DNA of 32,000 bases, taken from Pseudoalteromonas translucida KMM 520 (GTDB taxonomy: Bacteria; Pseudomonadota; Gammaproteobacteria; Enterobacterales; Alteromonadaceae). The stretch's first letter is position 1. Each line of letters starts with the position of its first letter. The notes under the pieces are model-generated. The model did no database searches. It was not told where the DNA came from and saw nothing but the letters and a program-made list of their open reading frames with translations. Below, piece after piece: positions 5,210-32,000 of the stretch. Made by a program: the position numbers and the translations under genes. The stretch spans positions 1,710,001 to 1,742,000 of the forward strand of contig NZ_CP011034.1 of NCBI RefSeq assembly GCF_001465295.1, given 5' to 3'.

Positions 5210-5232
5210 GTGTTTTAGCCTAATGTGTATAT

Positions 5233-9362: not shown

Positions 9363-9388
9363 AATAGTGTGTACTGTAACCTTGTGGT

Positions 9389-9805
9389 TTAGTTACCCCA
9401 AGGGTTAGTTGAGCTAACACGCTGTTTACGGGTACGCGCACGTTGCTTAGTCTCTTTTTTCTCCATGATACGCTTTGCATCAGTAAAGCTTAACTCACAC
9501 GGCTCACCAGGTTTATGATCAGCAGGGATCACGCGATCACGCGGTGGTAATTCGTATTGCACATCATCAGGACGTGGTAAGTTTTTAAGGCGATACAAAT
9601 AAAAGTTATCTACTTTTTCTTGTGCCCACTGTGTTTTACGTAAAAATTTAACCGCAGATTTAAGATCAGGATTATTTTTAAAGCAATTTAGCTGTAAATA
9701 AGCGTATAGGAGTTCCCACCCATATTGTTCAACCAGCTCTTCAACCACTTGTTCTAATTTTACGCCTTGCAGTGGGTTATTACTGAAAAGTTCTTGGTTG
9801 CTCAT
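9389..9805 (-). CDS. DUF2132 / VF530-like small putative DNA-binding protein
   Basis: NPLQGVKLEQVVEELVEQYGWELLYAYLQLNCFKNNPDLKSAVKFLRKTQWAQEKVDNFYL matches my memory of the DUF2132 (VF530) fold family. The track start at 9832 is a TTG. ATG 9805 is preceded by GAGG 8 nt upstream, so I prefer it. Confidence 0.65.
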   Translation of the reverse strand: MSNQELFSNNPLQGVKLEQVVEELVEQYGWELLYAYLQLNCFKNNPDLKSAVKFLRKTQWAQEKVDNFYLYRLKNLPRPDDVQYELPPRDRVIPADHKPGEPCELSFTDAKRIMEKKETKQRARTRKQRVSSTNPWGN

Positions 9806-9877
9806 AGGTGTTACCTCGTTATTAAAATACAAATTGTATTATAAATTTAATAACGAGGCTTTAACAGAGTAAATAGC

Positions 9878-10870: not shown

Positions 10871-10881
10871 GGGATATCCTT

Positions 10882-10901
10882 TTAGACCGATCGTCTTTTA
10901 A
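10882..10901. promoter_or_regulatory. Candidate TetR operator, copy 1 (upstream of acuI)
   Basis: TTAGACCGATCGTCTTTTAA lies 12 nt upstream of the acuI start codon (10870). It shares TTAGACCGATCG-N-CTTT with the copy at 11562-11581 and contains the CGATCG palindrome. Confidence 0.55.
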
Positions 10902-10917
10902 TTGGTAAAAAAACGCA

Positions 10918-11553
10918 TTAGGTTAGTAATGCGCGTAAAAACATTTCTGTATATAAAGTAAGTGGGGTATTAGACTTAGTGAGCTTGGCACGCATAACCG
11001 CACCCTCCCAACCAATCCAAAAATACTCACTCATTAATTGGGTGTTTACACTGCTGGCAATTGTACCTTGCTGCTTTGCTTGGTTTAAACACACCTCTAC
11101 CAGGTTTTGCCAGCTAGTATAACTTTGCAATAAGCGGGTTTTAAACTCGTCACTTAAGTGATTCAGTTCTTGATTTAAATTACCTACCAAACAGCCACGC
11201 TTATAATCGTACTTTTTCATACCTTTAATGGCACTTTGGGTAAAGTTGACTATTCGCTCCAGCGGGGGAACGTCACTTTGTTGTAAATAATGATTAAGTT
11301 TGGCAATAAAATAACTGTCGTAAGCATCAACTAGGGCAATACCGTACGCTTCTTTACTTTTAAAGTAATGATAAAAAGAGCCTTTAGGCACGGCTGCTTT
11401 TTTTAATATGGTATCGAGACCGGTTGCGCTAAAGCCAAACTCGGTTAGTGTTTCTAGGCCTGTGCGAATAAGTAACGCTTTGGTATCAGCGTTTTCTCTG
11501 GCTACTTTGGGTGGGCGACCACGCCTTACTGGAGTTGATGTGTTTTTGTTCAT
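10918..11553 (-). CDS. TetR family transcriptional regulator
   Basis: N-terminal TetR-type HTH (LIRTGLETLTEFGFSATGLDTILKKAAVPKGSFYHYFKSKEA). 211 aa, all-helical C-terminal region. Confidence 0.85.
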   Translation of the reverse strand: MNKNTSTPVRRGRPPKVARENADTKALLIRTGLETLTEFGFSATGLDTILKKAAVPKGSFYHYFKSKEAYGIALVDAYDSYFIAKLNHYLQQSDVPPLERIVNFTQSAIKGMKKYDYKRGCLVGNLNQELNHLSDEFKTRLLQSYTSWQNLVEVCLNQAKQQGTIASSVNTQLMSEYFWIGWEGAVMRAKLTKSNTPLTLYTEMFLRALLT

Positions 11554-11561
11554 GCATCATA

Positions 11562-11581
11562 TTAGACCGATCGACTTTAAA
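11562..11581. promoter_or_regulatory. Candidate TetR operator, copy 2 (upstream of tetR)
   Basis: TTAGACCGATCGACTTTAAA begins 9 nt upstream of the tetR start codon (11553). It is near-identical to the copy at 10882-10901. Confidence 0.55.
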
Positions 11582-11928
11582 TAATCAAGCGTTAATTGTG
11601 TTGTTTATTAAATAAACTAAAAAAATTCAAAAATAGACTGAATTTATTTGGAACTAAGGCTAAATTAGCCGGTCACAATATGTACACAAGAGTGTAATAA
11701 AGCGATTGTTTAATCGTGTTTTTAAGTTAGTTTAAACCGGTCAATACAGTGCAAGTACGACCACTTACTTTTTAAAAAGCTAATTCATCATTGCATCAGC
11801 AACTTAGTTAAAGTCAAACTAATTAATTGCTTTTATAATTTGAATTAACCTTTTTTATTAGCTATTCATTACATGTAGATTTCACTAATGCTACAAAATA
11901 TATAAATACAAAGGTGAGGATATTACCG

Positions 11929-12099
11929 ATGAAGAGACAAAAAAGAGATCGTTTAGAGAGAGCACATTCTCAAGGATTTAAAGCAGGTTTAGCAGGTCGC
12001 TCTAAAGAGCATTGTCCCTATCAACAAGTTGATCCAAAATCAGAATGGTTAGGTGGTTGGCGCGAAGCAATAGATAATCGTAATCTTTATAAAACATAG
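11929..12099 (+). CDS. rmf: Ribosome modulation factor
   Basis: MKRQKRDRLERAHSQGFKAGLAGRSKEHCPYQ... is the canonical RMF sequence at ~56 aa. The track GTG at 11914 lies inside the SD (GGTGAGGA at 11912-11919), which is 9 nt before ATG 11929. It shows the conserved rmf-fabA convergent neighbourhood seen in E. coli. Confidence 0.9.
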   Translation: MKRQKRDRLERAHSQGFKAGLAGRSKEHCPYQQVDPKSEWLGGWREAIDNRNLYKT

Positions 12100-12120
12100 T
12101 ATATATAACTGAATTTAAGC

Positions 12121-12148
12121 AAAAATGCCTCCAAGTGGAGGCATTTTT
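12121..12148. terminator. Bidirectional rho-independent terminator between rmf and fabA
   Basis: AAAAA-TGCCTCC-AAGT-GGAGGCA-TTTTT: a 7-bp GC-rich stem (12126-12132 / 12137-12143) with a 4-nt loop, flanked by an A-run and a T-run. Confidence 0.85.
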
Positions 12149-12177
12149 GTATGTGTATTTTAATTATTAACAGTTAA

Positions 12178-12693
12178 TTAAAATGCACTGGTGTCTTGAA
12201 ATAGACCCACTTTTAAATCTTTCGCTTCGTAGATTACACGGCCATCTACTTCTACCGTGCCATCGGCAACACCCATAAATAATTTACGTTTAATTACGCG
12301 TTTCATTACCAGGCGGTAGGTTACTTTTTTAGCGGTTGGTAAAATTTGGCCGGTAAATTTAACTTCACCCACACCTAGCGCACGGCCAAGACCTGGGCCG
12401 CCAGACCAACCTAAGTAAAATCCAACTAACTGCCACATAGCGTCTAAACCTAAGCAACCAGGCATTACAGGGTCACCTTTAAAATGGCAGTCGAAAAACC
12501 ATAAGCTAGGGTCAATATCTAGCTCAGCAACAATTTCGCCTTTACCGTGTATTCCGCCATCGGCAGTAATAGAGGTAATGCGGTCCATCATTAACATATT
12601 GTCGCTTGGTAAACGGCAGTTACCTTCACCAAACATTTCACCTTCACCACATAGGATCAAGTCTTCTTTTGTATAGCTATTTTTAGGTTCCAT
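12178..12693 (-). CDS. fabA: 3-hydroxydecanoyl-ACP dehydratase/isomerase
   Basis: 171 aa. [43 protein letters not shown] and KVTYRL are canonical FabA blocks, including the active-site His region. Confidence 0.92.
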
Positions 12694-12896
12694 AACACTT
12701 ATCTTCGCTTATAAATTGCCAACTACTTTAGCGTACACTTGTACGCTGAACAACTCGGATCAGTTAAAAAAGCTAAATTTAGCAGGTTTTTTCATCAATC
12801 GATTGGTGTAATTGATTTTAGCCTGATTAAACCGCGCAATTACAATCATAAATCATTATAATTACAGCTGACTTTTAACCTGTTTAAAGGAAATTT

Positions 12897-13754
12897 ATGA
12901 TCCTTTTTGTTAACTCACTAACAGTGATAGATTTTTCTTACTTGTGTAATAAACGCGGCGCAGTTGGCGAAAGCTGGATTGTTGATTTAACTTTGCATGG
13001 CAAACTAAACGATGAGTCTATGGTATTAGACTTTGGGTTAGTTAAAAAGCAAATTAAAGGCATTATAGATGAGTGTATTGATCATCGTTTAGCTGTACCT
13101 AATAATCTAAATGGCATGGTTAGCGAGTTTAGCGACCATAAAACATTAGATTGTACTTTTGGTGATAACCACCATTTGGCTATGAGTGCTCCACATCAAG
13201 CTTATTGTATGATTAACGCTGATGAAGTAACTATTGCATCGGTTACTGATTTTTTAATAGCGACTATTTTGCCACAGCTACCAGATAATATAGAAAAAAT
13301 TGAGCTGTCATTAAAGCCAGAGCATAACCAAAGCTATTATTACCATTACAGTCATGGCCTTAAAAAGCATGATGGCAATTGCCAACGTATTATTCATGGG
13401 CACCGTTCTCAAATTGGCATTAGCTTAGATGGTATTTCTATGCCACGCTTGCAAAAAGAATGGTCACAAAAGTGGCAAGACATTTATTTAGCCACCGCTG
13501 AGGATCAAATTAAGGCAGACGAGTTACAACACGTTAGCGCAAAAGCCGGTGATGTATGTTTTGCATATACTTCAGCGCAAGGCTATTTTGAAATGGCTAT
13601 TAGCGAATCGCGTTGCGATATTTTACCTAGCGATACCACGGTTGAATGCATTGCCGAATACTTAGCGGGTCAGGTAAAAGCACAGTATCCAGAAAAAGCG
13701 GTAAAAATAACGGCCTACGAAGGAGTAGGCAAAGGGTCTATTAGCCATGCTTAA
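12897..13754 (+). CDS. 6-pyruvoyl-tetrahydropterin / 6-carboxytetrahydropterin synthase (PTPS/QueD) family-like protein
   Basis: 285 aa. CQRIIHGHRS resembles the Cys...HGH zinc/catalytic motif of PTPS/QueD proteins. AAGGA lies 5 nt upstream of the ATG. The subfamily assignment is uncertain. Confidence 0.55.
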   Translation: MILFVNSLTVIDFSYLCNKRGAVGESWIVDLTLHGKLNDESMVLDFGLVKKQIKGIIDECIDHRLAVPNNLNGMVSEFSDHKTLDCTFGDNHHLAMSAPHQAYCMINADEVTIASVTDFLIATILPQLPDNIEKIELSLKPEHNQSYYYHYSHGLKKHDGNCQRIIHGHRSQIGISLDGISMPRLQKEWSQKWQDIYLATAEDQIKADELQHVSAKAGDVCFAYTSAQGYFEMAISESRCDILPSDTTVECIAEYLAGQVKAQYPEKAVKITAYEGVGKGSISHA

Positions 13755-14565
13755 AACATTATTAGCAGCCGTGTTAATTTCCTCTACTAGCTTAAGTGCG
13801 ATGGCGCTTGAGCTAAAAGGGCAATTAACTCAAGGCGGTTTAGTAACCGGTAATATAAGTAACGCGCAGTCGGTTAGCTTTAACGATAAAGCACTTAAGC
13901 TTTCGAGTAAGGGTGATTTTGTATTTGGCTTTGGTCGCGATGCACCAACAAATCACACACTTAAATGGGTTGATAAAGCTGGTGTTGAGCACAGTGAAAG
14001 CCTAGTAATTACTAAGCGCGACTATCAAATTGATAAAATTACTGGCGTTGCTAAAAAGTATGTATCGCCGGCTAAAGAACTCAGCGCACGTATAAGTAAA
14101 GAGGCTGCTGCGATTAGAGCTGCGCGCCAAGTTAATTCTGACCTATTGTACTTTTTAGATCCTGTGCTAAAACCTGCACAAGGGCGTATATCTGGGGTGT
14201 ATGGTAGCCAACGTTATTTTAATGGCGAGCCACGCAGACCACATTTTGGCTTAGATATAGCCAATAAAACGGGCACACCTGTGTATGCACCTATAAGTGG
14301 CACTGTGGTGTTTTCGCAGCCTGATATTTATTACTCTGGCGGCACACTTATTTTAGACCATGGCCACGGCGTTACTTCTACTTATATTCATTTAAGTAAG
14401 CTTGATGTAAAGCTGGGCGATAAAATTGAGCAAGGTAGTAAAATAGCTGAAATAGGTGCAACAGGGCGAGTAACAGGCCCGCATTTAGATTGGCGTTTTA
14501 ACTGGCAAGGTCAACGCCTTGATCCGGCCTTATTAATGCAAGACAAATTAGCTAATAAAAAGTAG
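13747..14565 (+). CDS. M23 family metallopeptidase (secreted)
   Basis: Signal peptide MLKTLLAAVLISSTSLSAMA. It has the HxxxD motif (RPHFGLDI) and the HxH region (DHGHGVTSTYIHLS, GATGRVTGPHLDW). Its start overlaps the upstream stop by 8 nt. Confidence 0.88.
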   Translation: MLKTLLAAVLISSTSLSAMALELKGQLTQGGLVTGNISNAQSVSFNDKALKLSSKGDFVFGFGRDAPTNHTLKWVDKAGVEHSESLVITKRDYQIDKITGVAKKYVSPAKELSARISKEAAAIRAARQVNSDLLYFLDPVLKPAQGRISGVYGSQRYFNGEPRRPHFGLDIANKTGTPVYAPISGTVVFSQPDIYYSGGTLILDHGHGVTSTYIHLSKLDVKLGDKIEQGSKIAEIGATGRVTGPHLDWRFNWQGQRLDPALLMQDKLANKK

Positions 14566-14570
14566 ACATT

Positions 14571-15005
14571 ATGACACAAGTAGAGCGCGATGCTATTATC
14601 GCGCAACGTATTAAAGATTCCACCACGTCGGTAACTAAAACAGTGTTTCCGGGACGAACTAACCACCACAACACTTTATTTGGTGGCGACGCTTTAGCTT
14701 GGATGGACGAGGTTGCTTTTATAGCGGCAACGCGTTTTTGCCGTAAGCCTTTAGTTACCATTTCATCAGATAGAGTAGACTTTAAAGAAGCGATACCTGC
14801 TGGAACTTTTGCTGAACTTATAGCTAAAGTAGTGCATGTAGGTAATACCAGTTTAAAAGTTGATGTCGATATACTTCTTGAAACTATGCATAATGACAAC
14901 AAGCATTCTGCTATTAGTGGCAGCTTTACCTTTGTAGCAGTAAATGATGATCACAGACCAACACCTGTGGTTTGCGATAAAATGATTTATGGTTTTGACA
15001 AGTAA
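14571..15005 (+). CDS. Acyl-CoA thioesterase (hotdog fold, YciA-like)
   Basis: VFPGRTNHHNTLFGGDALAWMDEVAFIAA is the typical acyl-CoA hydrolase hotdog signature. 144 aa. Confidence 0.8.
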   Translation: MTQVERDAIIAQRIKDSTTSVTKTVFPGRTNHHNTLFGGDALAWMDEVAFIAATRFCRKPLVTISSDRVDFKEAIPAGTFAELIAKVVHVGNTSLKVDVDILLETMHNDNKHSAISGSFTFVAVNDDHRPTPVVCDKMIYGFDK

Positions 15006-15156
15006 AACATTAGAATAAAAAATTTTAATGTTATTAAAAGTAAGCACTTTAAGTAGTGCTTATTTAAAACCCATTAAAGAACACATCATACTATATAGTT
15101 ATAAATGCTATAAACTAAACAACAGTATAAGTTTTTTTAATAAATAATCAGAGATG

Positions 15157-15191
15157 GAGGGATAACCTAATCTATTATTAGGTTATCCCTC
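15157..15191. repeat. Perfect 15-bp inverted repeat (hairpin), possible terminator between convergent genes
   Basis: GAGGGATAACCTAAT (15157-15171), loop CTATT, ATTAGGTTATCCCTC (15177-15191). There is no clean U-tract on either side, so function is unassigned. Confidence 0.6.
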
Positions 15192-15214
15192 AATTTAGTT
15201 TTACGTTACTTAGA

Positions 15215-16537
15215 TTAAAGTACCATGGCGGCTATCCAGCCAAATATTAATAACGGTATATTAAAGTGAATAAAGGTAGGCACAACTGAGTCCCAAATAT
15301 GGTCGTGTTGACCATCAGCATTTAGCCCGGAAGTTGGCCCAAGTGTAGAGTCTGAAGCGGGGGAGCCTGCATCACCTAACGCACCGGTTGTTCCCACTAA
15401 GGCAGCAGTGGCCATAACCGAAAAGCCCAGCTCTAAACATAAAGGAACAAATAAAGTAGCTATAATTGGCACGGTAGAAAATGAACTACCTATACCCATG
15501 GTAATAAACAATCCAACTAATAAAATGACTGCCGCAGCAATGGGTTTATTCCCAGCAAATAACTCAGCGCCACTGTGTACTAAACTAGCCACATGACCTG
15601 TTGCTTGCATAACAGCTGCAAACCCTTGAGCTGAAATCATTATAAAACCAATCATTGCCATCATAGCGACGCCTTTACTAAATACGTCACCATTATCTTC
15701 CCATTTAACGATACCGAAAACGCTAAAAATCATCACACCAACTAAGCCGCCTAAAATCATTGAGCCGCTAGCATTTTGCGCAATAAGTGAAGCAAGTACA
15801 GCAAACAGGCCAACCAACATTACCTTTTTAGGGTTTTCTACCGTGGTTTCTTTACTTTCTATGGTAAGCGGGAGCGCTTTGTAATCACGACGTTTTCTGT
15901 AACTAAAAAATATCGCAATTAATAAACCAGCAAACATGCCCAAAGCCGGAATTATCATTGCTATAGGCACTTGGGTATTTATTATTTCTAACCCGTTATC
16001 GACTAAATTTTTATGTAGTATTGAATATAAATAAATACCACCAAAGCCATACGGTAGCACCATATAAGAAGTAGCTAAACCAAAAGTTAAAATACAGGCT
16101 ATGGCACGTCGATCTAGCCTAAGTTTATTAAAAATCACCAGCAGCGGTGGAATAAGAATAGGAATAAAGGCGATATGAACTGGCACTAAGTTTTGCGATG
16201 AAACGGCGCAGATCAATATTATAAATAAAATAAAATAACTGAGCAGGGTTTCACTGCCACTTTTTTGTGCATTAACTTTTGCTAATAATTTTGCGGCTAA
16301 AATACGTGTTAAACCTGACTTAGAAATAGCCACTGCAAAAGCACCTAACATGGCATAACTTAGTGCTATTTCAGCACCAGCCGACAACCCCGAATTAAAG
16401 GCGTCTATACTTTCTTTTAAGCCCAAACCAGCGGTTAAACCAGCAACTAGGGCACTTATTATCATTGCAACAATAACATTTACGCGGACCAAGGTTAGCC
16501 CAAGCATTAATAAAACGCCTATAACAACCGCATTCAT
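15215..16537 (-). CDS. NhaC/YuiF-type Na+/H+ antiporter family membrane transporter
   Basis: 440 aa and polytopic, with about 11-12 hydrophobic helices. The N-terminus [34 protein letters not shown] resembles the Na_H_antiporter-family proteins I remember. Substrate unknown. The start overlaps the upstream stop by 4 nt. Confidence 0.65.
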
Positions 16538-22234: not shown

Positions 22235-23194
22235 GTGGCCAAGCTATCTAATACAGAAATTAGAAAACTCGATGATGCAGCAAGAGCAGGGTGGTTGTAT
22301 TATGTTGCAGGTAAAACTCAAGAAGAAATAGCTAAAAAACTTAATACCTCACGCCAGTCGGCACAAAGAATGGTAGCGCTATCTGTTAGCCAAGGATTAA
22401 TAAAAGTAAGGCTCGATCATCCTATTGCTAAATGTATGGATTTGGCTGAACAAATTAAAACGCGTTTTGGTTTGATCTCTTGTGATGTAGTGCCTAGTGA
22501 TCCATCAGAGCCTTCATCTACATTGGGTTTGGCACAAGCTGGTGCGGCTGAAATAGAACGCCATTTAAAATCACCACAACCAAAAGTAATTGCAATGGGA
22601 ACCGGGCGAGTTTTACGTGCGTGCGTAGATGAACTGCGAACACAAGATTGCCAACAACATAAAATAGTAGCCATGTTAGGCAATATGGCATTAGACGGAT
22701 CGGCATCGCCATACGATGTAGTAGTTAGAATGGCCGAGCATATAAATGCCAAACATTACCCAATGCCATTACCAGTTTTGCCACGCACCATTGAGGAAAA
22801 GCAGCTACTGCATTCACAGCAAAACGTTGCTAGCAATTTAAAGTTGGCCACTAATGCAGATGTTACATTTGTAGGCGTAGGTAATTTAGGATTAAATTCG
22901 CCACTTCATAAAGACGGTTTTGTTAGCCTTGACGAACTCCAAGAGTTACAACAACAAGGTGCTGTTGGGGAAATGATAAGTTGGGTGTTTGATAAAAACG
23001 GTAAGTTATTAGATTGTAATGTTAATCAACGAGTAGCAAGTACGCCATTAAAAATTAATTCTGGAAAACAAATTTTTGCTATAGCTGCCGGAGAAGAAAA
23101 AGTGTTAGCCATTTTAGGTGCGCTAAGATCTAAAATGATTAGTGGGCTTATTACTAACGAATGCACGGCCGAGCGCTTACTCAGTATTGAGTAA
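22235..23194 (+). CDS. SorC/DeoR-type sugar-binding transcriptional regulator
   Basis: GTG start with AAGAGG 5 nt upstream. N-terminal HTH (AARAGWLYYVAGKTQEEIAKKLNTSRQSAQRMV), then a SorC-like sugar-binding domain (IAMGTGRVL, VAMLGNM, FVGVGN, IFAIAAGEEK). Confidence 0.8.
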   Translation: MAKLSNTEIRKLDDAARAGWLYYVAGKTQEEIAKKLNTSRQSAQRMVALSVSQGLIKVRLDHPIAKCMDLAEQIKTRFGLISCDVVPSDPSEPSSTLGLAQAGAAEIERHLKSPQPKVIAMGTGRVLRACVDELRTQDCQQHKIVAMLGNMALDGSASPYDVVVRMAEHINAKHYPMPLPVLPRTIEEKQLLHSQQNVASNLKLATNADVTFVGVGNLGLNSPLHKDGFVSLDELQELQQQGAVGEMISWVFDKNGKLLDCNVNQRVASTPLKINSGKQIFAIAAGEEKVLAILGALRSKMISGLITNECTAERLLSIE

Positions 23195-23572: not shown

Positions 23573-24952
23573 ATGTACAAAGTAATTAACTGTAGCAATA
23601 GGTATTATTGTTTGCTGGATCGTCTAACAACATTGCCTGTGCTTTTAGCGTTAAGATATACAGAATCACAACTAATTATAAAATCACTAAACTATCAGAA
23701 GTACGAACTTGAATCTGTGAAAGCTTTTTATGAGTTTTGGTACGCAAAGCATAGAGTGACTCTCGACTATTCTTTTTACATTAGTGAGTATCAAGATATT
23801 TTGATGTTAGTTCAGGAAATTGAACCCTTCTTGGAGTGGCTATTAAGTGGTCGTGAATTCAATAACATAGTACAGCTAACTGAGAATAATTCTGTAAATA
23901 TGAGAACAGCCTCAGGCCGAGTAGCTTCAATTTGTCGATTCATTAATTTTTTGAACAAAACCTACATAACTACTTACTACAGTAATTTGCCTTTGCCTGA
24001 TATTTCAAATATTCAACAGTTGGTTTTAATACAACTCGATGGAATAAAGAAAAAATGCAATATATTTACAAAAAGCAGCTGCAAGCAACAACAAATTCGT
24101 AGTTTGACTAAAGAACAATTTAATGACTATACGGCTATTTTTGTTCCAGATAAAATTTCACTAAGAAACAACCAAATTAACCACTACGAAGTTATAACCC
24201 CCAACCCGCTTAATCCTATGACCTCATATGATATTCAACTTCGAAACTATCTAATAATGGTGTTAATGAGTGTATACGGCTTACGAGTAGGAGAAGTTTT
24301 GCTACTTCATAGGCTTTCATTTAAACATTATCGCAGTGATGAAACTAAAGTGTTAATGCTCGTTCGTAACATAGAAGATGAAGTTGATGAAGTAGAAGAT
24401 GTCCGTTTATACAAACCAGGTTTAAAAAGCGAATCATCGATCAGAATGCTCGATATCAGTAGCAAGCACTTCCGTTACATCAAAACATACATTGATATAT
24501 TTAGGCCATTGAAATGTGAGCATGATTACATATTCGTTTCACACAAAACACCATATCAGCCACTTTCATATAGCACTGTGGCAACTGAATTTGCAAGATA
24601 CTCTGAGTCATTTAAGAAGAATTTTAAACATCATTTTGATCCGCAATACAGTGAATCAATTCATGGTAACGTGAGCCCGCATTGGCTCAGGCATACTTGG
24701 GCTTATAATCAGTTAAGAGTGCAATTTTCAATGAATGAGTCACGATTTACTCATGATGGTATCGTTAGCATAAAAGGCATTATGGAAGACGCGATAGATT
24801 CTCTTCGAGTATTAGGTGGATGGGCACCTAATTCATGTATGCCTCATCGATATGCAAAACGATTTATTCATGAGCAGGCAAATAAAACATTATTGTCGGT
24901 ATTAACCTATGATACTAATTCACAGAAAATAGAGGTTGATGAAAATGACTAA
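23573..24952 (+). CDS. Tyrosine recombinase 1 of 3 (ginA-like position)
   Basis: 459 aa. It has the box I Arg in YGLRVGEV (R238, 24284-24286), HWLRH (24680-24694; H370/R373), LGGW, and a candidate nucleophile Tyr in PHRYAKRF (Y427, 24851-24853). Confidence 0.85.
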   Translation: MYKVINCSNRYYCLLDRLTTLPVLLALRYTESQLIIKSLNYQKYELESVKAFYEFWYAKHRVTLDYSFYISEYQDILMLVQEIEPFLEWLLSGREFNNIVQLTENNSVNMRTASGRVASICRFINFLNKTYITTYYSNLPLPDISNIQQLVLIQLDGIKKKCNIFTKSSCKQQQIRSLTKEQFNDYTAIFVPDKISLRNNQINHYEVITPNPLNPMTSYDIQLRNYLIMVLMSVYGLRVGEVLLLHRLSFKHYRSDETKVLMLVRNIEDEVDEVEDVRLYKPGLKSESSIRMLDISSKHFRYIKTYIDIFRPLKCEHDYIFVSHKTPYQPLSYSTVATEFARYSESFKKNFKHHFDPQYSESIHGNVSPHWLRHTWAYNQLRVQFSMNESRFTHDGIVSIKGIMEDAIDSLRVLGGWAPNSCMPHRYAKRFIHEQANKTLLSVLTYDTNSQKIEVDEND

Positions 24953-26492
24953 TGTATCTCATAGAATGTCTGTGGGCCCTCTGCCCCCCCTACTCCATGA
25001 TGAGCAAAAAGCATTTATTAAACTGCTTAATATCCCCTTAATAATGAAGATACCCTCCAATTCAAAATTTGACCAAAAATTTGTTCATACCACAGGTGAA
25101 CGTTGGGAGTTTAAACGTTTGGGTGTAAAGCACGTTTATATATTCAACATTGGATGTATATACCTTAATAAATTGCTTAAGTACGTGACAATCAAATATG
25201 CCTATGAGCATTCGGCACCTTTGACAGATACATTGTTTCATTGTGTCAGAAGGTTTTTAAGTTCAAGTGAGCTAAATGACAATGCTAGTTTAAATAATTT
25301 AGAAAAAGAGGCTATGTGTAATAATGCAGATGTACAGGCGCACTACGTAGTAAAATCGGTCATTAGGTCACTTTTTCGTATCGGATTTCCAGGGTTTGAA
25401 ATCAATCATTATCAAAAATTGAACTTTTTAAAAACGCCCGCGCAAGTCAATAATTTTTTGAAATATGAAGATATTGAGAATATCATGCCGTCTCATTTAA
25501 AATACCTCATAGTCAGAAGATTAGCGGAGTTTAGTACCAAAGAGGGGCTTGTATCATTATCCAATAACGAATTGAAATGCTTAGTAATTTTAGGGTTATG
25601 TTATTCCACAGGGATGCGTTCATCACAGTTTTCTATGTTGCATGGATCTTCGGTGTTAATGGTTTCACATAATAAATCATCTGGTCTTGCTAGGTATGAA
25701 ATTTTAATGCCGATAGCTAAGCAGCAAAAAATAACAGGCGACTTATCCCGTGTAGCAATTCCATATGAGGTAGGTCGGTTAGTAGATGAATATAAAACGA
25801 GAAATGCTATCGGTGAAGGTGACCAACTTTTTGTCTCCGTAACTAGCGACTTATCGCCTGAATTACATAGATTATTAAACGAAGCATTAAAGTTTATTCA
25901 ATCTGACGAGTTTAAGGCCGATTTAGCAAAAAATAAAGTGTTTCCTCCTCGTATAACTATATACGATTTTCGCCATAATATCGGACATTCAATGGCAATG
26001 CGAGGCGCTAGTGCTGAGGAAATTGCCCATATCCTTGGGCATACTAGCATAGTCGCTGCGAAGCACTATATTTCGGCGACACCTGAATTAGCGCTATTAA
26101 AACATAAAGCGCTTGGCAGTAACCCTATTTGGCTGAAAATGATTGGCTTGATGATGTCAGGCTATTCTGTTGAAGAGAATGACTGGTCTGGCAAAGTAGT
26201 TAATGGAGTCTTAGGCAGTAAACTCGTACTAAAAGTAGGAGGTTGTGAACGTAAGCAGGAGCAATGTCACTTATCCAAAGTGCGTTCCTGTTACGGTTGT
26301 TTTTACTTTCGTCCATTTACTGATTTGGAAAAACACAAGGAAGTTTTAAATATCATTACTAACGAACTTATTAATCAGATTGAAGTCTCCCAAATATCAG
26401 GGAATCATGTAAATCCATTGATCGATACAGTGACCTGCACCAAACACGAAGTTCAAATGGTTATTAATAGAATTTCTGGTGGACTCTTATGA
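24945..26492 (+). CDS. Tyrosine recombinase 2 of 3 (ginB-like position)
   Basis: The track ORF starts at TTG 24936. AGAGG (24931-24935) sits 9 nt before ATG 24945, which is preferred and overlaps the upstream stop as ATGACTAA. In track numbering: STGMRSSQ (R228, 25617-25619), YDFRHNIGH (R346, 25971-25973), ILGHTSIVAAKHY (Y378, 26067-26069). There is a C-terminal 4-Cys cluster at 26244-26300. Confidence 0.85.
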   Translation: MTNVSHRMSVGPLPPLLHDEQKAFIKLLNIPLIMKIPSNSKFDQKFVHTTGERWEFKRLGVKHVYIFNIGCIYLNKLLKYVTIKYAYEHSAPLTDTLFHCVRRFLSSSELNDNASLNNLEKEAMCNNADVQAHYVVKSVIRSLFRIGFPGFEINHYQKLNFLKTPAQVNNFLKYEDIENIMPSHLKYLIVRRLAEFSTKEGLVSLSNNELKCLVILGLCYSTGMRSSQFSMLHGSSVLMVSHNKSSGLARYEILMPIAKQQKITGDLSRVAIPYEVGRLVDEYKTRNAIGEGDQLFVSVTSDLSPELHRLLNEALKFIQSDEFKADLAKNKVFPPRITIYDFRHNIGHSMAMRGASAEEIAHILGHTSIVAAKHYISATPELALLKHKALGSNPIWLKMIGLMMSGYSVEENDWSGKVVNGVLGSKLVLKVGGCERKQEQCHLSKVRSCYGCFYFRPFTDLEKHKEVLNIITNELINQIEVSQISGNHVNPLIDTVTCTKHEVQMVINRISGGLL

Positions 26493-28909
26493 CTTTACAA
26501 CAAGAAAACCTTCAACTGTTAATAAGTCAGAGCAAAGCTTATTTCGAATCAGTCCTTGCTAAAGAGGCAAAATTAAAGTGGGAGGACAATAGATGGTTAT
26601 TTAATGCGTCACAAACAGGTTTCCTTATTAACCGCAAAAGGGAGAATATCGCATATGATTGCATAAACCTAGCCTATTTCAAAGGCATCCTGAAACAGGG
26701 AGAGTATTTTTCTTCACCCACAATCTTGGTTGAAAATGAATACATTGTATTTATGAAAGCTTATATTGTGAATCTGATGTCAAAGTCTTCTAACAAGCTA
26801 TCTTGTTCCACTTTAAAGACAAGACAATTGTTGCTCAAGCGTATTTATATTCGAATGCTACAAAATAATATCCCACCGTTTGCGACCAACATTACCAGTG
26901 AAGTGATTCAGGAAACGGTTGATATTTTAGTACGGATACGAAAAAATCAATCTAATGCCGCAGATGACTATACTCAAATGAACACAGTGGTTCAATGGTT
27001 AAATCATTTCCAGATAACGAGTGCTCCATTAGAGCTCAAAATAAATGTTACTGCCCCACCGCGAAATACCACTGAACGTGTGAGAAAAGATAAAGCTAAA
27101 TCTGGAGTATTAGCAGAATTTGCAGAGTGCTTCGGCGATCAAGATGACAAGCGAAACCTATCGATTCATACATTCTTAAATATTATTGCGCTACGAATTC
27201 TCGTTCGTTCAGACAGTGAAAAAATCATGTTAAATATGGTACTTCTTCTCATTGTCACGGGTATGCGTTTTGGTGAAGTTTATTCGTTGAGGCGTGATGC
27301 ATTGAAGAAACTGAAGGTTGAGGATCCAGATATCATAAAGTTACTCAGGGACCGTAAGCTACCAACATACTATATTGGTATTCAGTATTACGGAGAAAAA
27401 GGAGCTGGTGAGAGAACCCATTGGGTTGAACCTTTGGCCATAGGTATCGTAGAGAGTATATTCCACGACACCTTGGCTATGAGCTGTAGTCTCAGAGAGC
27501 AAGTTATATATGTACGTGAAAATAATTTCAAAACACTCCTTCCAAAGAAATATGATTTTAAATGTACAACATCATCTAAATTAAGTTTAATTAATTTAGA
27601 TGATGTTGTACGAGACATTTACGAGAGCACATCGAAGACAGCTTTAGCAAAAGGATGGTCGTCTATGAGGGAATACGCTAAAGCAAAATTAAAGAAGTTT
27701 GATATCAACCCGATTCGGGTAGAAATTAAAGGAAAAAATAAAACTATACATTATACTTTAGAGGATATAGATAAATATTTGAATTTGTCCCTTCAAGCTG
27801 ACTCGACTATATCTTCAGATTTTATCTTTAGAATGATCGATCATAGAAACAATATAAATTATGAAGTTAAGTATGAAGATATGTTATTTATCGTTCCACT
27901 AGGGAGTAATAAATTAAGTAAAACGGGGTATACAAAACCAATTCCACAGCTCGTTTCAATTAATAATATGATGTCCTTTTTAGGTAGTGGTAATACCAAT
28001 AGCAGTAATTCTATTTTTTCTAAGTACAAACTGATTGATGAATTGGGTCAAACAACATACCTAAATACTCATTTCCCAAGACACGCTATTAATACTTTCT
28101 TTGCTATTGCAGGCGTTGCTGATCATCTTCAGGCTATGTTTATGGGTCGAACCGATATACGTCAAAATGCTTACTATCAACATCTAGCTATACAAGAAAA
28201 AGCGCGTTCGAATCAGTTAATCACTCACAGTAAACCTAGTTCATGTTCACAAAATTCATCAGTTACCAAATCAAGTGGTAGCCTTAATAATGCTTTGCAA
28301 AAAGTTAAAGATACATCCCAAATATCTTTGACAACTAAGTTGCAACCTAACAATGCCTTTAACCAAACCTTGCATACATATACAACTAAACAAGATAGAA
28401 CAGACTTTATAGAGGATATTATTGATAAAACGTCATCTGATATCTTTTCTGAATTTGAAGATATGGACGTTACTGATGTGGTTAAAAAAGACATTATTTC
28501 GACTCACTCAGATCTATATCCACTGTATATTGGGAGTTGTATGAGAAAGTTAACAACGTTTGAATGCCCTTATAACACAAAGTGCCAAGATGGCAGCTAT
28601 TGCCCTTACTTTATTATTACTGGAAGAGAGGATGAGTTTGATAAAATGACAGCGCTAATAAGTGAAATTCACGAGCAAATAACTGTTTTAAATCAATTAA
28701 TTATTTCAAAATATATAGAAGAAAATACCGCAATTGAGCTTATAGAAGAACTTAAAGGTCGACTAAGTAATTTAGACTATCAACTCAGTCAGTCATCAAT
28801 CTTAGAATCTGAGAAATCAAAGGTGAATCTAGCTTCATTTGACGTCTTTAAAAAACCAAAGATGCTATCGGAATTATTCGCGGTTGAGCAAAGAAAGCTT
28901 AAGACTTAA
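26489..28909 (+). CDS. Tyrosine recombinase 3 of 3, large form with a long C-terminal extension (ginC-like position)
   Basis: 806 aa. ATGA start/stop overlap with the upstream gene (26489-26492). VTGMRFGEV (R260, 27266-27268), THFPRHAINT (R531, 28079-28081), MGRTDIRQNAYYQH (Y562/Y563, 28172-28177). A 4-Cys cluster lies at 28538-28603, followed by a coiled-coil-like tail. Confidence 0.85.
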   Translation: MTLQQENLQLLISQSKAYFESVLAKEAKLKWEDNRWLFNASQTGFLINRKRENIAYDCINLAYFKGILKQGEYFSSPTILVENEYIVFMKAYIVNLMSKSSNKLSCSTLKTRQLLLKRIYIRMLQNNIPPFATNITSEVIQETVDILVRIRKNQSNAADDYTQMNTVVQWLNHFQITSAPLELKINVTAPPRNTTERVRKDKAKSGVLAEFAECFGDQDDKRNLSIHTFLNIIALRILVRSDSEKIMLNMVLLLIVTGMRFGEVYSLRRDALKKLKVEDPDIIKLLRDRKLPTYYIGIQYYGEKGAGERTHWVEPLAIGIVESIFHDTLAMSCSLREQVIYVRENNFKTLLPKKYDFKCTTSSKLSLINLDDVVRDIYESTSKTALAKGWSSMREYAKAKLKKFDINPIRVEIKGKNKTIHYTLEDIDKYLNLSLQADSTISSDFIFRMIDHRNNINYEVKYEDMLFIVPLGSNKLSKTGYTKPIPQLVSINNMMSFLGSGNTNSSNSIFSKYKLIDELGQTTYLNTHFPRHAINTFFAIAGVADHLQAMFMGRTDIRQNAYYQHLAIQEKARSNQLITHSKPSSCSQNSSVTKSSGSLNNALQKVKDTSQISLTTKLQPNNAFNQTLHTYTTKQDRTDFIEDIIDKTSSDIFSEFEDMDVTDVVKKDIISTHSDLYPLYIGSCMRKLTTFECPYNTKCQDGSYCPYFIITGREDEFDKMTALISEIHEQITVLNQLIISKYIEENTAIELIEELKGRLSNLDYQLSQSSILESEKSKVNLASFDVFKKPKMLSELFAVEQRKLKT

Positions 28910-29017
28910 ATCTTATTGCGTAGATCCCCTGCTCCACATGAGTTTGTTTTTTGTGATTTAATGACATTAATTTAAACGTCGTAATCGTTAACTAAGTAAC
29001 TATCTGTGAGATTATAT

Positions 29018-29446
29018 ATGAAAGGTAAAGAATTAGATCGAGAAGTTGAGAAAATACTTATGGACATGCTTGTTGATGGGTATCATGTATCCCCTATTTC
29101 ACAAAAATCAGTATTTGAAAGATTACGTAGTAGAGGCATCATTAAATCTAAAGCTACGCTAACAAAAAGAATGCCTTTAATAAAAGAATATCTTGTTAAA
29201 CAGCAGGCAGAGGTTAAAGGGGTTTTGGGAGAATCATTAGTTGGTAGTAATAGCCAAACTAGAGCTAATTTAATTGCAAGTAATGCACGTCTAAAAGATG
29301 AACTAAGGGAGTCGAAGCAGCAACTTATAGTCAATACCAACGTGATTTTGGATATTGTAAAAACTATTAAAACACAAACGAACATTTTAAATATTGAACG
29401 TATTCTATCACCTAAGCTAATCAGAGAATTAAGAGAGAATGATTAA
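29018..29446 (+). CDS. Small HTH-like / coiled-coil protein following the recombinase trio (ginD-like position)
   Basis: The track start is GTG 29006; ATG 29018 gives MKGKELD.... The N-terminal segment (SPISQKSVFERLRSRGIIKSKATL) is HTH-like. The C-terminal part (ARLKDELRESKQQLIVNTNVILDIVKTIKTQ) has heptad character. It starts 108 nt downstream of recombinase 3 on the same strand. Confidence 0.65.
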   Translation: MKGKELDREVEKILMDMLVDGYHVSPISQKSVFERLRSRGIIKSKATLTKRMPLIKEYLVKQQAEVKGVLGESLVGSNSQTRANLIASNARLKDELRESKQQLIVNTNVILDIVKTIKTQTNILNIERILSPKLIRELREND

Positions 29447-29638
29447 TAAATTGGATTGTTGAGGTGTACGAGCTCTAAATGGGTCGCGATTTCGACTCTA
29501 CCAAAGATATTTTTGTGTTAGATCACTCTTCATATTTACGCACCTATCGCTTTTGTGGCTATACAGCGTCATCTAACATGTTATTAATCATACTCTACTT
29601 TATCTCTGCTACTGTATGAATATAGCTCGTATTAGTAG

Positions 29639-31018
29639 TTATAAAAATGCTTCAACAACTCTAGCTCTGAGTGACTTAATGTGTAAACTATCCATAGAGC
29701 AATAAGGCAACTCTCCAGTGCTAACCAGATAGTTACCTGAAGATAAACAATCTTCACTAAGTACATCAAAGTTCACTTTTAAGCTGCTATTTTTTCCTTT
29801 CTTATATGGTTTTAAATGTTTCAATGATTTATCTGACAATGAAAGAGTATTACATTCCATATCAACATAAGAGCAACAATCTGGTATATCAATATTAATG
29901 CGCTCAGCAAACTCAACTAAGCTTGTTTCTGCAAATGTGAATAACCAGGCGAGTTCAATTTTATTTTTGCCAGATCTAACAATACGCCCTAAAACTTGCC
30001 TAAAGTACAACTCTGTTTTTATAGAGCTTAGATGACAACATACTTGTAGTCTAGGTATGTCGGTACCTTCACTGATCATGCCTACACTAACAATCCACTG
30101 TTCAAAAGATGACTTAAATGAGTTGATCTTTTTTATTGAATTATCGTGTAAGTATGTGACTATCGTTGACGTTTGATTGAATTCTTCAATCAATATTTTG
30201 TTAATCATTTCTGCGTGTGCTACTGAAGACGCAACAACTAGACCTCCGGCAGTCGATTTTGAAGTTCTTATCTCCGACAATTTTAATACTGCTAATTTCA
30301 ATAGATATTTAAGTGCAGAGTGGTTATTAAGAACTTCTTGGTGCGTTGAGTGAGTTTGTTTAAGAAATTCAGCAATCGATCCGTAGGTTTCGTGACCATT
30401 CGAAATACTTTTGCTGTCAACTAAAACTATTTTTGGTTCTCTACACACATTATCCCCAATGGCCTGACTAAAGCTGTATTTATAATCGCAGATTAATTTA
30501 CCTTCGGGGTCTGAATAGTTTAGCAAAGCGATAGGAAGAGCATCTGATCGCCAAGGGGTGCCCGATAGCGCAAGCGTGTAGGTTGCAATATCCTGCAAGT
30601 TGAAAACCACTCTCTCACCCCACGTATTGATTTTAGATTTATCTTGCGAGAATGAGCAGTGATGTATTTCATCAAAAATAAAAAATGTACGATATTTACT
30701 AAGCCCAAACCAAGCACTCTGTGGAATTGAACATAAACTTTGATAAGTCATAGAGACACCTATAGACGTAAATGAGCCATCAAACGAACAGCCAATTATT
30801 TTTCCAAATGTTCTTCTAATATTATTAGCCACCTCAACCGATGGTGAAAAACAGACAACCCTATCTATCATTTTTTTATCAAATAACGTTTTTGCCAGTG
30901 ATGCTGCCATTATTGTTTTACCACTGCCAGGAGTAGCCTGACATAGAAAGTGCTTATCAGTAGCCGTGTATTTCTTTACTGCTAACTCCAGACATTCTTT
31001 TTGCCAACTTCTCAGCAT
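29639..31018 (-). CDS. Superfamily-2 helicase (ResIII/DEAD-like core plus Helicase_C-like domain) with an unrecognised ~90-aa C-terminal tail
   Basis: Ordered SF2 motifs:
- Q-like: LRSWQKEC
- I: ATPGSGKT (G31-T35 = 30914-30928)
- Ia: VCFSPSVEV
- Ic: TYQS
- II: FDEIHH (DEIHH = 30659-30673)
- III: LSGTPWRSD
- V: MISEGTDIP
- VI: QVLGRIVRSG
No nuclease or other effector domain recognised. Confidence 0.85.
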   Translation of the reverse strand: MLRSWQKECLELAVKKYTATDKHFLCQATPGSGKTIMAASLAKTLFDKKMIDRVVCFSPSVEVANNIRRTFGKIIGCSFDGSFTSIGVSMTYQSLCSIPQSAWFGLSKYRTFFIFDEIHHCSFSQDKSKINTWGERVVFNLQDIATYTLALSGTPWRSDALPIALLNYSDPEGKLICDYKYSFSQAIGDNVCREPKIVLVDSKSISNGHETYGSIAEFLKQTHSTHQEVLNNHSALKYLLKLAVLKLSEIRTSKSTAGGLVVASSVAHAEMINKILIEEFNQTSTIVTYLHDNSIKKINSFKSSFEQWIVSVGMISEGTDIPRLQVCCHLSSIKTELYFRQVLGRIVRSGKNKIELAWLFTFAETSLVEFAERINIDIPDCCSYVDMECNTLSLSDKSLKHLKPYKKGKNSSLKVNFDVLSEDCLSSGNYLVSTGELPYCSMDSLHIKSLRARVVEAFL

Positions 31019-31560
31019 TGCTGGGCACCATTGTTCAAAGAAGACAATACAGTAGTTAAAGCGTTAACTTTTCCTAATAACTTAGCTGAATTATTTTTAG
31101 CATCATCTAATGCAGAATAGAACAAGTTAAGGTGGTCAGGGAATCGCTTTTGTAGAGCCTTATATTCATCAACTTCCCCCAGTAAAATTGCAAGTTCAGC
31201 CTCAAACTGATTCTTTTCATTTAATAAAGTTTCTACAAGCGGTGATGCTTGATTATCAGTATTACAGCTAATAGATATTTCTTGTTCAATTGCAACCTGT
31301 TTAGGCTCAAAGGTAACTTTATTAAACAGCTCAGATTTAAAATACTTTTTATTGCGGCCACTTCCTTTTGAAATTAAGATCTCCTTCCGCTCAAGAGCTG
31401 TCGTTTGTCTATAAATAAATTTACGTGCCTCATCTATATCTTGATATGTATCAGTTACGGTTAGTAATTCATCCCTTAGCTCGACAATTGTGAAACCATT
31501 GCACTCTTTTTCGAGCAAAAGGGAATAAATGTGTTGGTTTAATTTGATAACTTGGGGCAT
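31012..31560 (-). CDS. Hypothetical protein: winged-helix-like N-terminus plus coiled-coil C-terminus, translationally coupled to the helicase
   Basis: 182 aa. The N-terminal ~85 aa (IYSLLLEKECNGFTIVELRDELL...ARKFIYRQTTALERKEILISKGSGRNKKYF) looks like a wHTH. The C-terminus has a heptad-like stretch (LLNEKNQFEAELAILLGEVDEYKALQKRF). Its stop (31012-31014) overlaps the helicase ATG (31016-31018) as ATGCTGA. Confidence 0.7.
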   Translation of the reverse strand: MPQVIKLNQHIYSLLLEKECNGFTIVELRDELLTVTDTYQDIDEARKFIYRQTTALERKEILISKGSGRNKKYFKSELFNKVTFEPKQVAIEQEISISCNTDNQASPLVETLLNEKNQFEAELAILLGEVDEYKALQKRFPDHLNLFYSALDDAKNNSAKLLGKVNALTTVLSSLNNGAQQC

Positions 31561-31585
31561 TTCTTATACTACAATATTTACGAAA

Positions 31586-31602
31586 ACTTAGGGTTGCTAA
31601 GT
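31586..31602. promoter_or_regulatory. Operator-like palindrome O1 (ACTTAG-N5-CTAAGT)
   Basis: ACTTAGGGTTGCTAAGT, 25 nt from the start codon of the 182-aa gene. It overlaps a possible leftward -10 (TATACT, complement of 31600-31605). Confidence 0.7.
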
Positions 31603-31619
31603 ATATAGAACAATGCAAA

Positions 31620-31636
31620 ACTTAGGAATACTAAGT
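31620..31636. promoter_or_regulatory. Operator-like palindrome O2 (ACTTAG-N5-CTAAGT)
   Basis: ACTTAGGAATACTAAGT. Its centre is 34 bp from the O1 centre. Confidence 0.7.
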
Positions 31637-31678
31637 TATGAATTTAAGAGTGATATTAAGAGCATACACACAAGCATA

Positions 31679-31695
31679 ACTTAGGATTCCTAAGT
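31679..31695. promoter_or_regulatory. Operator-like palindrome O3 (ACTTAG-N5-CTAAGT)
   Basis: ACTTAGGATTCCTAAGT. Its centre is 59 bp from O2 and 34 bp from O4. Confidence 0.7.
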
Positions 31696-31712
31696 GTACA
31701 AATCGTTGTAAA

Positions 31713-31729
31713 ACTTAGACAATCTAAGC
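31713..31729. promoter_or_regulatory. Operator-like palindrome O4 (ACTTAG-N5-CTAAGc)
   Basis: ACTTAGACAATCTAAGC, 27 nt upstream of the GTG start of the XRE gene. Confidence 0.65.
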
Positions 31730-31756
31730 TACTAGAGACTGAAAAATGATACTTTT

Positions 31757-32000
31757 GTGTTCCAAAATCCAATTCCAATTAAACTCAAACAAGCCCGCAC
31801 TAAATCAGGTATTACTCAAAAACAGCTGGGGGTACTTATCGGCATGGATGAAAACTCTGCGAGTGGTCGGATGAATCACTATGAGAAAGGCCGTCATATT
31901 CCTGACTTAGCTACCCTAAAAAAGATCGCTGATGAACTAAATGTTCCATTGAATTATTTTTTCTGTGAAGATGAGGCAACAGCAGAGCTAGTAATTGAAA
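31757..32000 (+). CDS. XRE-family helix-turn-helix transcriptional regulator (3' end cut by the window)
   Basis: Not in the ORF track because there is no stop in the window. My translation from GTG 31757 gives (M)FQNPIPIKLKQARTKSGITQKQLGVLIGMDENSASGRMNHYEKGRHIPDLATLKKIADELNVPLNYFFCEDEATAELVIE, a classic HTH_3/Cro-cI type domain. An in-frame stop at 31733-31735 bounds the 5' end. The nearby ATG at 31746 is out of frame. Confidence 0.8.
   Translation, partial: MFQNPIPIKLKQARTKSGITQKQLGVLIGMDENSASGRMNHYEKGRHIPDLATLKKIADELNVPLNYFFCEDEATAELVIE

Follow-up and report, generated by a model that had tools for sequence, protein, structure and literature searches.

A predicted operon of a VspR-family regulator and a superfamily 2 helicase, and its place in a candidate control module of mobile defence islands

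Introduction

What is the role of a superfamily 2 (SF2) helicase whose gene overlaps that of a small winged-helix protein, directly beyond the recombination genes of a mobile island? The question is raised by a 32 kb stretch of DNA from Pseudoalteromonas translucida KMM 520 (contig NZ_CP011034.1, positions 1,710,001 to 1,742,000), referred to here as the window, in which two adjoining genes on the minus strand encode proteins of 182 and 459 amino acids. An earlier reading of these genes, made without database searches and called here the sequence-only reading, regarded the pair as the first cargo of the island and left two roles open: a new defence system, or a helicase module for replication or partition of the island itself.

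We report that the pair is most probably a genuine two-gene operon, encoding a predicted repressor of the VspR family and a dedicated SF2 DNA-dependent ATPase that appears RadD/XPB-like. It is neither a replicative helicase nor a complete known defence system. Across a divergent promoter region with palindromic operators lies a gene for an Xre-type regulator; the three genes are referred to below as the triad. On balance we favour the view that vspR, the SF2 ATPase gene, the divergent xre gene and the operators make up a portable control and establishment module, belonging to the backbone of mobile defence islands and not to their variable cargo. The copy in the window is one ordinary member of this module.

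Results

An overlapping gene pair for a VspR-family protein and a dedicated SF2 helicase

The regulator gene occupies positions 31012–31560 and the helicase gene positions 29639–31018, both on the minus strand, and the two share the seven nucleotides ATGCTGA (31012–31018, minus strand). Direct reading of the DNA bore out the two overlapping open reading frames and their coordinates as first described. Because the start codon of the helicase gene sits within the end of vspR, the overlap implies that translation of the two genes is probably coupled.

The 182-residue protein had been taken for an orphan, a view that did not survive comparison with its relatives. A 100% identical protein (P0121; PTRA_a1909 of P. 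translucida KMM 520) carries the precomputed Pfam families PF27213 (VspR_N) and PF27192 (VspR_C), as does every relative returned, those from the V. cholerae, Pseudomonas and Halomonas neighbours included, and some relatives bear the UniRef name ‘Transcriptional regulator VspR’. The query itself matched nothing in our local copies of Pfam, PADLOC, PHROGs and NCBIfam, in the case of Pfam because that copy predates the VspR_N and VspR_C models; the VspR identity derives solely from the precomputed annotations of homologues, by which the protein is classed as a predicted VspR-family regulator. The AlphaFold 2 (AF2) model (predicted local distance difference test, pLDDT, 82) agrees with the winged-helix N-terminus and heptad-rich C-terminus noted previously: a winged helix spans residues 1–88 and is followed by a disordered linker and by long helices at 107–139 and 141–181, which may form a dimerising coiled coil. 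When the model was compared with the PDB the matches were weak, to PadR/AphA-type regulators, and a PDB search with the sequence returned nothing. When 1.84 billion representatives were searched exhaustively with a profile, the family came to only 555 clusters (50% identity), all about 170–190 residues long; the small number and uniform size indicate that VspR is a small family with a single architecture. VC0177, the VspR encoded on the VSP-1 island, was not among the best 120 matches of another profile search, which are dominated by Pseudomonas. VspR represses VSP-1 genes in Vibrio cholerae, and VC0177 is the protein for which binding and repression of the CBASS locus have been reported. Transcriptional repression is known for VC0177 only, and by analogy the window protein may act in the same way.

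The 459-residue protein was described at the outset as carrying a full, ordered set of SF2 motifs, and this description holds. ATPGSGKT (with K34), DEIHH (116–120), SGTP, SEGTDIP and QVLGRIVR are all present in the translation, and across 48 homologues the residues G31, G33, K34, D116, E117, H119, H120, G153, T154, P155, Q341, G344, R345 and R348 are invariant. Pfam matches above the gathering scores were obtained for ResIII (1.6e-14), DEAD (6e-8) and Helicase_C (1.9e-5), and the best match in PHROGs was phrog_16, ‘DNA helicase’ (3.7e-33). The AF2 model (pLDDT 67.7) comprises a core of two RecA-like domains, RecA1 and RecA2 (residues 1–385), a disordered stretch (388–448) and a terminal helix (449–458). 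With motifs I, II, III, V and VI in order and two modelled RecA-like domains, the protein is assigned to the SF2 helicases. A Foldseek search of the PDB with the model placed RadD first (1e-15), followed by XPB-II and by the SauUSI and LlaBIII motor domains, the nearest solved structures being 16–19% identical; a PDB search with the sequence found XPBII at 7.5e-8. Identification as RadD itself was rejected: NCBIfam model NF053632 scored 41.5 bits against a cut-off of 720, no RadD C-terminal domain is detected, and the structural match covers the core only, at 16–17% identity.

Beyond the core, alignments of 12 and of 48 homologues revealed that residues from about 386 to 445 vary in both sequence and length, while the last 12 or so are conserved with the consensus LGxF(K/R)QRVISAF. 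The sequence-only reading had singled out a cysteine-containing tail in this part of the protein. A zinc-binding role for it was rejected on the same alignments, as only C382 is invariant among the cysteines. A clamp-binding, PIP-like motif at the C-terminus was likewise considered and rejected; the window protein lacks the glutamine, and only R453 and F458 are invariant. The Pseudoalteromonas helicase is about 48–57% identical to copies in Vibrionaceae and 44–49% identical to those on enterobacterial and Pseudomonas plasmids.

Scans of Pfam, PADLOC, PHROGs and NCBIfam detected no nuclease, toxin, primase or initiator domain in either protein. PADLOC-DB 2.0 returned partial matches to the helicase core only (PbeA, 48.6 bits, 1.2e-13, and fragments of type I restriction endonuclease, Cas3 and DinG), found none for the 182-residue partner and contains no system matched by both proteins. 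The absence of nuclease, primase and initiator domains, and of a match to any named defence system, had both been stated from the letters alone, and the library scans are in accord with each.

A divergent Xre regulator and its predicted operators

The control region upstream of vspR (31585–31731, between divergent genes) holds four copies of the palindrome CTTAG-N5-CTAAG, at 31587–31601, 31621–31635, 31680–31694 and 31714–31728, compared with about 0.03 expected by chance, and there are none elsewhere in the window. They form a duplicated 54-nucleotide unit of two operators (31585–31638 and 31678–31731). The four-operator region was recognised in the original description of the locus; we now assign it to the divergent gene on its far side. 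This gene begins with a GTG codon at 31757 on the plus strand and runs off the end of the window, so that only its 5′ part (31757–32000) is included, and its full-length homologues are helix-turn-helix (HTH) proteins of about 100–106 residues. A profile of this family hits C.Csp231I (3LFP), a restriction-modification controller protein, at 7.6e-27, and the four operators fit a divergent Xre regulator of the C.Csp231I type, for which they are predicted binding sites. The features of a C-protein-type switch are present, namely a HTH_3 protein of about 100 residues homologous to C.Csp231I and paired palindromes in its own predicted promoter region. In related loci the palindrome is strongly concentrated at the same place, with 59 copies in 10.8 kb of DNA between xre and vspR vs 13 in 1.28 Mb outside, and single extra copies occur elsewhere within transposon loci of the kind described below. 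A scan of positions 28900–32000 for consensus promoters and terminators was uninformative: neither a terminator nor, within the control region, a promoter-like site came up.

An Xre protein of about 100 residues is conserved between tnsABC and tniQ-cas in type I-F3b CRISPR-associated transposons (CASTs) (Petassi et al.), and the window Xre is predicted from its sequence to correspond to it. The I-F3b protein binds its operators and represses both its own promoter and tniQ-cas, which results in a burst of expression when the element enters a naive cell; an I-F3b operator motif upstream of tniQ has also been reported. In V. parahaemolyticus the divergent promoter of VPA1392 is repressed some 24-fold by the Xre protein VPA1391 and is also silenced by H-NS, ToxR and LeuO, and the product of the next gene, VPA1393, is an SF2 helicase (COG SSL2).

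Helicase-to-VspR linkage is strictly one-way

In a pattern scan that took a single genome for each species, 397 relatives of the helicase were identified, and 80 loci were kept for analysis; with two from V. cholerae they make up the 82 helicase-selected loci referred to here (individual loci carry numbers prefixed L). The 80 come from Vibrio, Photobacterium, Aliivibrio, Enterovibrio, Pseudoalteromonas, Shewanella, Neiella, Paraglaciecola, Alginatibacterium and Thalassolituus. Co-occurrence outside this genome had been named in advance as a test of the pair, and the outcome was clear: a vspR gene lies directly upstream of the helicase gene in 82/82 loci, in most of them with the same seven-nucleotide overlap, and the pairwise identities of the two proteins co-vary (Spearman 0.76). 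Selection from the VspR side gave the same picture, with a helicase gene downstream in all five places found by three look-ups (P. aeruginosa, Halomonas and another Pseudomonas). An xre gene stands opposite vspR in 67 of the 82 loci, encoding a protein of about 100 residues to which the window Xre is 62–95% identical. The helicase also occurs in 60 plasmid records, including plasmids of Klebsiella, Enterobacter and Citrobacter, E. coli IncHI2 plasmids and P. aeruginosa plasmids, and in 4/5,426 complete E. coli genomes. In the chromosome of E. coli 14EC033 (L092, 9108–12251) an IS2 element is inserted between the vspR-like and helicase genes, and the triad stands at the island end beside the host gene gorA, a placement shared with E. 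coli strain 100416 (L093).

Metagenomic loci selected by Xre and with enough flanking sequence (n = 44) show that the linkage does not run the other way. Beside xre there were both vspR and helicase genes in 13 loci, vspR only in 21, a helicase gene with a VspR below threshold in three, and neither in seven. Sixteen of the 21 VspR-only loci belong to one divergent gut lineage, whose VspR is about 23% identical to the helicase-linked proteins. One of the remainder represents a recent loss of the helicase: its VspR shares 83% identity with a copy that is linked to a helicase, and the cargo downstream is still there. One CAST has hsdR-hsdM immediately after vspR. The existence of VspR-only loci indicates that VspR works without the helicase, while no helicase gene lacked an adjacent vspR gene among the 82 genome loci. 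The helicase-to-VspR linkage is strictly one-way.

The gut lineage (L117–L140; for example L124, 3700–5330), which is abundant in human-gut metagenomes, has an organisation of its own: the same Xre lies opposite the roughly 23% identical VspR, no helicase gene is present, and a second HTH_3 gene is followed by a convergent Gabija pair (GajA-like, 578 residues; GajB-like, 472 residues).

Viruses hardly carry the pair at all. Among 50,697 phage genomes there was one helicase match, at 31% identity, and none for VspR, and among the 2.9 million viral contigs of IMG/VR there was a single locus with a distant helicase homologue. These figures bear on one explanation of the pair, that it serves in anti-defence or in competition between elements, being expressed on entry to shield the island or to exclude rivals for the same site. 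Repression by Xre would indeed predict a burst of expression in a naive cell, and several genomes hold two helicase copies, in different elements. We nevertheless regard this explanation as improbable: neither protein resembles any known anti-defence protein, the pair is nearly absent from phages, where anti-defence genes are common, and a partner from a repressor family would be unexpected in such a role.

The triad travels with unrelated mobility systems

Neighbouring genes were clustered, representatives of the clusters were scanned with Pfam, and mobility genes were sought within 10 kb. In 26 loci the triad adjoins TnsA, TnsB and TnsC together with TniQ, Cas8-5 and Cas7, the components of a type I-F3 CAST. 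A further 16 loci have an SE-like module (IntA, two large proteins and a small protein), three have the GInt-ordered module of the window, eight have one of three further variants of the recombinase trio, and two, to which a P. aeruginosa locus can be added, have a GMT-type module marked by an Integrase_2/INT_rpt protein. No mobility genes were found within 10 kb in 27/82 loci. The triad travels with at least four unrelated mobility systems: I-F3 CAST, GMT, SE-like and GInt-like. Since it adjoins modules of all four kinds, we see it as backbone and not cargo. The position given in the first description, immediately beyond the recombination module, is upheld; the label ‘cargo’ is not, as the same genes recur as a conserved backbone or control module in several island families.

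The layout of the window is reproduced exactly in two V. cholerae loci (L001 and L002), where it continues into Lamassu and NACHT/Cap4 cargo. One possibility considered was that the 3′ end of the helicase gene serves as the attachment site of the trio elements, which would place the triad outside the island. This was rejected on finding a complete Pseudoalteromonas island of about 18 kb, bounded by host genes, that has an SE-like module at one of its ends and includes the triad. The triads of Halomonas and E. coli occupy the island end, beside ligA or gorA, and two Halomonas loci (L087 and L088) have the same triad at the same insertion site with different cargo behind it. CAST-linked helicases form clades of their own (18/19 members of one cluster), and those from recombinase-type islands are intermixed.

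Two arrangements within the CASTs deserve separate mention. In an inverted I-F3 subgroup (L062, L066, L074 and L059; about 3000–16000 in each) tniQ-cas8-cas7-cas6 come first and vspR-helicase next, with tnsC-tnsB-tnsA following on the opposite strand; there is no xre gene, and nothing else longer than about 70 residues is encoded between the two transposition operons. A CRISPR mini-array of four repeats with 60-nucleotide spacing follows cas6 in L066 (8826–9082), and none was found in L062 with the same settings. In twelve other CAST loci (L004, L013, L016, L024, L028, L031, L043, L052, L064, L070, L078 and L079) the helicase gene is followed on the same strand by a gene for an HsdR-like protein of about 815 residues and by HsdM/HsdS-like genes, in several cases with two small opposite-strand reading frames in between, and it is possible that in these loci vspR-helicase and the type I restriction-modification (RM) system share transcription.

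The neighbourhood of the pair had been proposed as a means of separating its two candidate roles. No primase, initiator, loader or polymerase gene was adjacent to it in any locus with annotated or clustered genes; it lies instead among defence genes. In all element types the triad is flanked by defence genes, which include type I and type III RM, Gabija, Lamassu, CBASS, BREX, Avs3, DRT, Qat, MADS and PDC candidates.

The replication alternative of the sequence-only reading fares badly here. In its fullest form the helicase would be the island's own replication helicase, acting after excision with VspR as an origin-binding initiator, in the manner of the helicases encoded beside staphylococcal SCC recombinases. 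It has in its favour the position of the helicase gene in the window, adjoining the recombination genes, the PHROG annotation of the best match as a DNA helicase, and the production of double-stranded circles by SE elements in a manner resembling copy-out. The lack of any adjacent replication gene, the essential absence from phage genomes and viral contigs, a fold that is of the monomeric RadD/XPB type and not a ring helicase, and operators that are palindromes typical of dimeric C-proteins and not iterons all speak against it. The same pair is moreover found in CASTs, which are Tn7-like, and Tn7-like elements move by cut-and-paste, without a circular intermediate. We consider it highly improbable that the pair is a replication module.

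The defence genes around the triad give more weight to a second alternative, in which the pair is itself a stand-alone anti-phage or anti-plasmid system, with VspR as sensor or regulator and the helicase as active component, and owes its distribution to being the most successful cargo at a fixed hotspot. Operons of a helicase and a small partner are common in defence. The pair is always embedded among defence systems, shows weak similarity to the helicase core of PbeA and is dispensable for mobility. Set against this, both proteins are without nuclease, toxin or other effector domains, PADLOC recognises nothing in the partner and only the core of the helicase, and the partner family is a known repressor. 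The position of the pair is also fixed, its slot never being taken by alternative genes; the level of conservation is high for a defence gene; and the pair is inherited clade by clade with the CAST lineages. A stand-alone defence system is, in our estimation, unlikely.

The recombination module of the window

In the window the island is inserted after a gene for a SorC-type regulator (22235–23194), with housekeeping genes further to the left, and since housekeeping genes occupy that side the island is taken to start at about 23.2–23.57 kb. Its left end is marked by a four-gene recombination module in the GInt order (23573–29446), with cargo beyond. Three overlapping recombinase-type genes on the plus strand (23573–28909) encode proteins of 459, 518 and 806 residues. 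The first two match Phage_integrase in Pfam (1.3e-7 and 3.2e-9), and integrase matches were obtained in PHROGs as well; the 806-residue protein has no Pfam match and its similarity to integrases is faint. A perfect 21-nucleotide inverted repeat with a 6-nucleotide spacer (GTACAACATCATCTAAATTAA / TTAATTTAGATGATGTTGTAC) lies within the coding sequence for this third protein, at 27564–27611. The module ends with a gene for a small coiled-coil protein of 146 residues (29006–29446, plus strand), convergent with the helicase gene. The protein matches no family in Pfam, PHROGs or NCBIfam, has homologues in the equivalent position in the two V. cholerae loci, and may, by analogy with the published descriptions of GInt and SE, have a role like that of GinD or Srap.

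Discussion

Taken together, the data tilt us towards a module of control and establishment that islands of quite different mobility carry as part of their backbone. A scheme for its operation can be proposed. Experiments on homologous Xre proteins suggest that Xre would bind the operators and hold down the vspR-helicase promoter once an island is established, and that entry of the island into a cell without Xre would set off a burst of expression of the vspR-helicase operon. VspR, as has been shown for the VSP-1 protein, may then repress island genes and so set their expression. VspR could bring in the helicase, perhaps by way of the helicase's conserved C-terminal helix, and the helicase might act as an ATP-driven, VspR-dependent translocase on island DNA, where conceivable tasks would be the remodelling of complexes of repressors or nucleoid proteins, or the processing of integration intermediates.

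Several points weigh against this reading. Contact between VspR and the helicase, and the binding of VspR to island DNA, are proposals, and VPA1392 would be a VspR homologue on the strength of annotations in two papers. The pair has defence genes to either side, which by guilt by association points to a role in defence. For SE elements, four core genes are enough for recombination, and a cargo-less SE of 6.3 kb exists, so the pair is not needed for mobility. Nor is it universal in CASTs, as two Neptunomonas CASTs are reported to share only the transposition genes and Xre. Finally, the recent loss of the helicase described above has left that locus otherwise unchanged.

A more speculative proposal, which we would rate as somewhat unlikely, is that VspR and the helicase constitute a new type of ATP-driven device in which a sequence-specific winged-helix protein directs onto DNA an SF2 translocase that lacks an effector. 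Such a device might be an accessory factor governing how efficiently CASTs and other defence islands establish themselves in new hosts, or a nuclease-free system of defence or exclusion that strips or blocks invading replicons.

The protein families concerned are each catalogued, and Xre and VspR have each been studied separately before. In the GInt, SE, GMT, CAST and VSP-1 literature that we searched, there is no description of the VspR-helicase operon as an obligatory unit, of its pairing with a CAST-type Xre, or of its spread across CAST, GMT, SE-like and GInt-like elements. A dedicated and unstudied helicase belongs to the same unit as these two regulators, and the unit accompanies at least four unrelated mobility systems by which defence genes spread in Gammaproteobacteria of marine and clinical origin, with IncHI2 resistance plasmids and the pathogenicity island VPaI-7 included. 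Should the helicase affect establishment or control, this would bear on the spread of defence islands and on the native biology of the CASTs used in genome engineering; should the pair turn out to act in defence, its lack of a nuclease would make it unusual.

Several known systems invite comparison. For the helicase, E. coli RadD and archaeal XPB-II are the best structural and sequence matches to the core of two RecA domains, although none of the C-terminal domains of RadD or accessory domains of XPB is detected, their place being taken by a disordered tail that ends in a short conserved helix. As an operon, the pair resembles Hachiman (HamA/HamB) and Gabija (GajA/GajB), which also combine a helicase with a smaller partner in two genes on defence-rich mobile islands. 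The partners in those systems are nucleases, whereas that in the window belongs to a family of winged-helix repressors; the PADLOC models of Hachiman- and Gabija-type systems match neither protein, and Gabija is found as separate cargo beside the triad.

The island itself is best compared with GInt (ginABCD) and SE (intA-tfp-intB-srap), with which it shares a four-gene recombination module at one end and cargo beyond. The GInt/SE operon encodes two catalytic tyrosine recombinases, a protein with the recombinase fold but without the catalytic motif, and a small coiled-coil protein; the sizes, gene order and domain matches of the window module fit this class, the comparison being with published descriptions, although in sequence the window module diverges from the SE-like modules of most related loci. 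Neither a helicase nor a VspR-like gene is mentioned in the descriptions of GInt and SE.

With the CASTs the likeness lies in the control region. The Xre of I-F3b CASTs, called RtbC in a review, belongs to the same family of about 100 residues as the window Xre. In 26 CAST loci a gene of this family stands between tnsC on one side and the cargo on the other, and paired palindromic operators lie in its own promoter as at the window. The window element differs in being a trio-recombinase island and not a CAST, and in the duplication of the operator pair to give four. The vspR-helicase operon across the promoter from xre is mentioned neither by Petassi et al. nor in later reviews and surveys of CASTs. 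In VPaI-7 of V. parahaemolyticus, an I-F3a CAST, the divergent Xre VpxR (VPA1391), the ‘hypothetical’ VPA1392 and the SF2 helicase VPA1393 are encoded next to tnsC, and the latter two are likened to the window pair by annotation and by matching prevalence figures, not by sequence. The Xre of I-F3a elements is by comparison a different, C.AhdI-like protein of 68 residues. In two machine-learning studies of V. parahaemolyticus, ‘vspR’, VPA1391 and VPA1393 ranked among the best separators of clinical from environmental isolates, which is most simply explained as an effect of their location on VPaI-7 and not by a virulence role of their own.

The closest parallel for the regulator is VspR (VC0177) of VSP-1, which has the same two Pfam families, VspR_N and VspR_C, and the same size as the window protein, and is likewise encoded on a mobile island beside defence cargo (CBASS). 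The window protein is about 40% identical to Vibrio proteins named VspR, VC0177 itself having been compared by its published description. On VSP-1 vspR is followed by capV and no helicase appears in the published gene lists, whereas the window family has one. An island on the E. coli IncHI2 plasmid pWL297-blaNDM-6 (L083; NZ_CP128614.1, 195210–214358) brings together the triad, a recombinase module of the trio kind and a CBASS operon, capV-dncV-cap2-cap3. As its composition is very close to that of VSP-1, this suggests that VSP-1 may be a helicase-less relative of the same island family.

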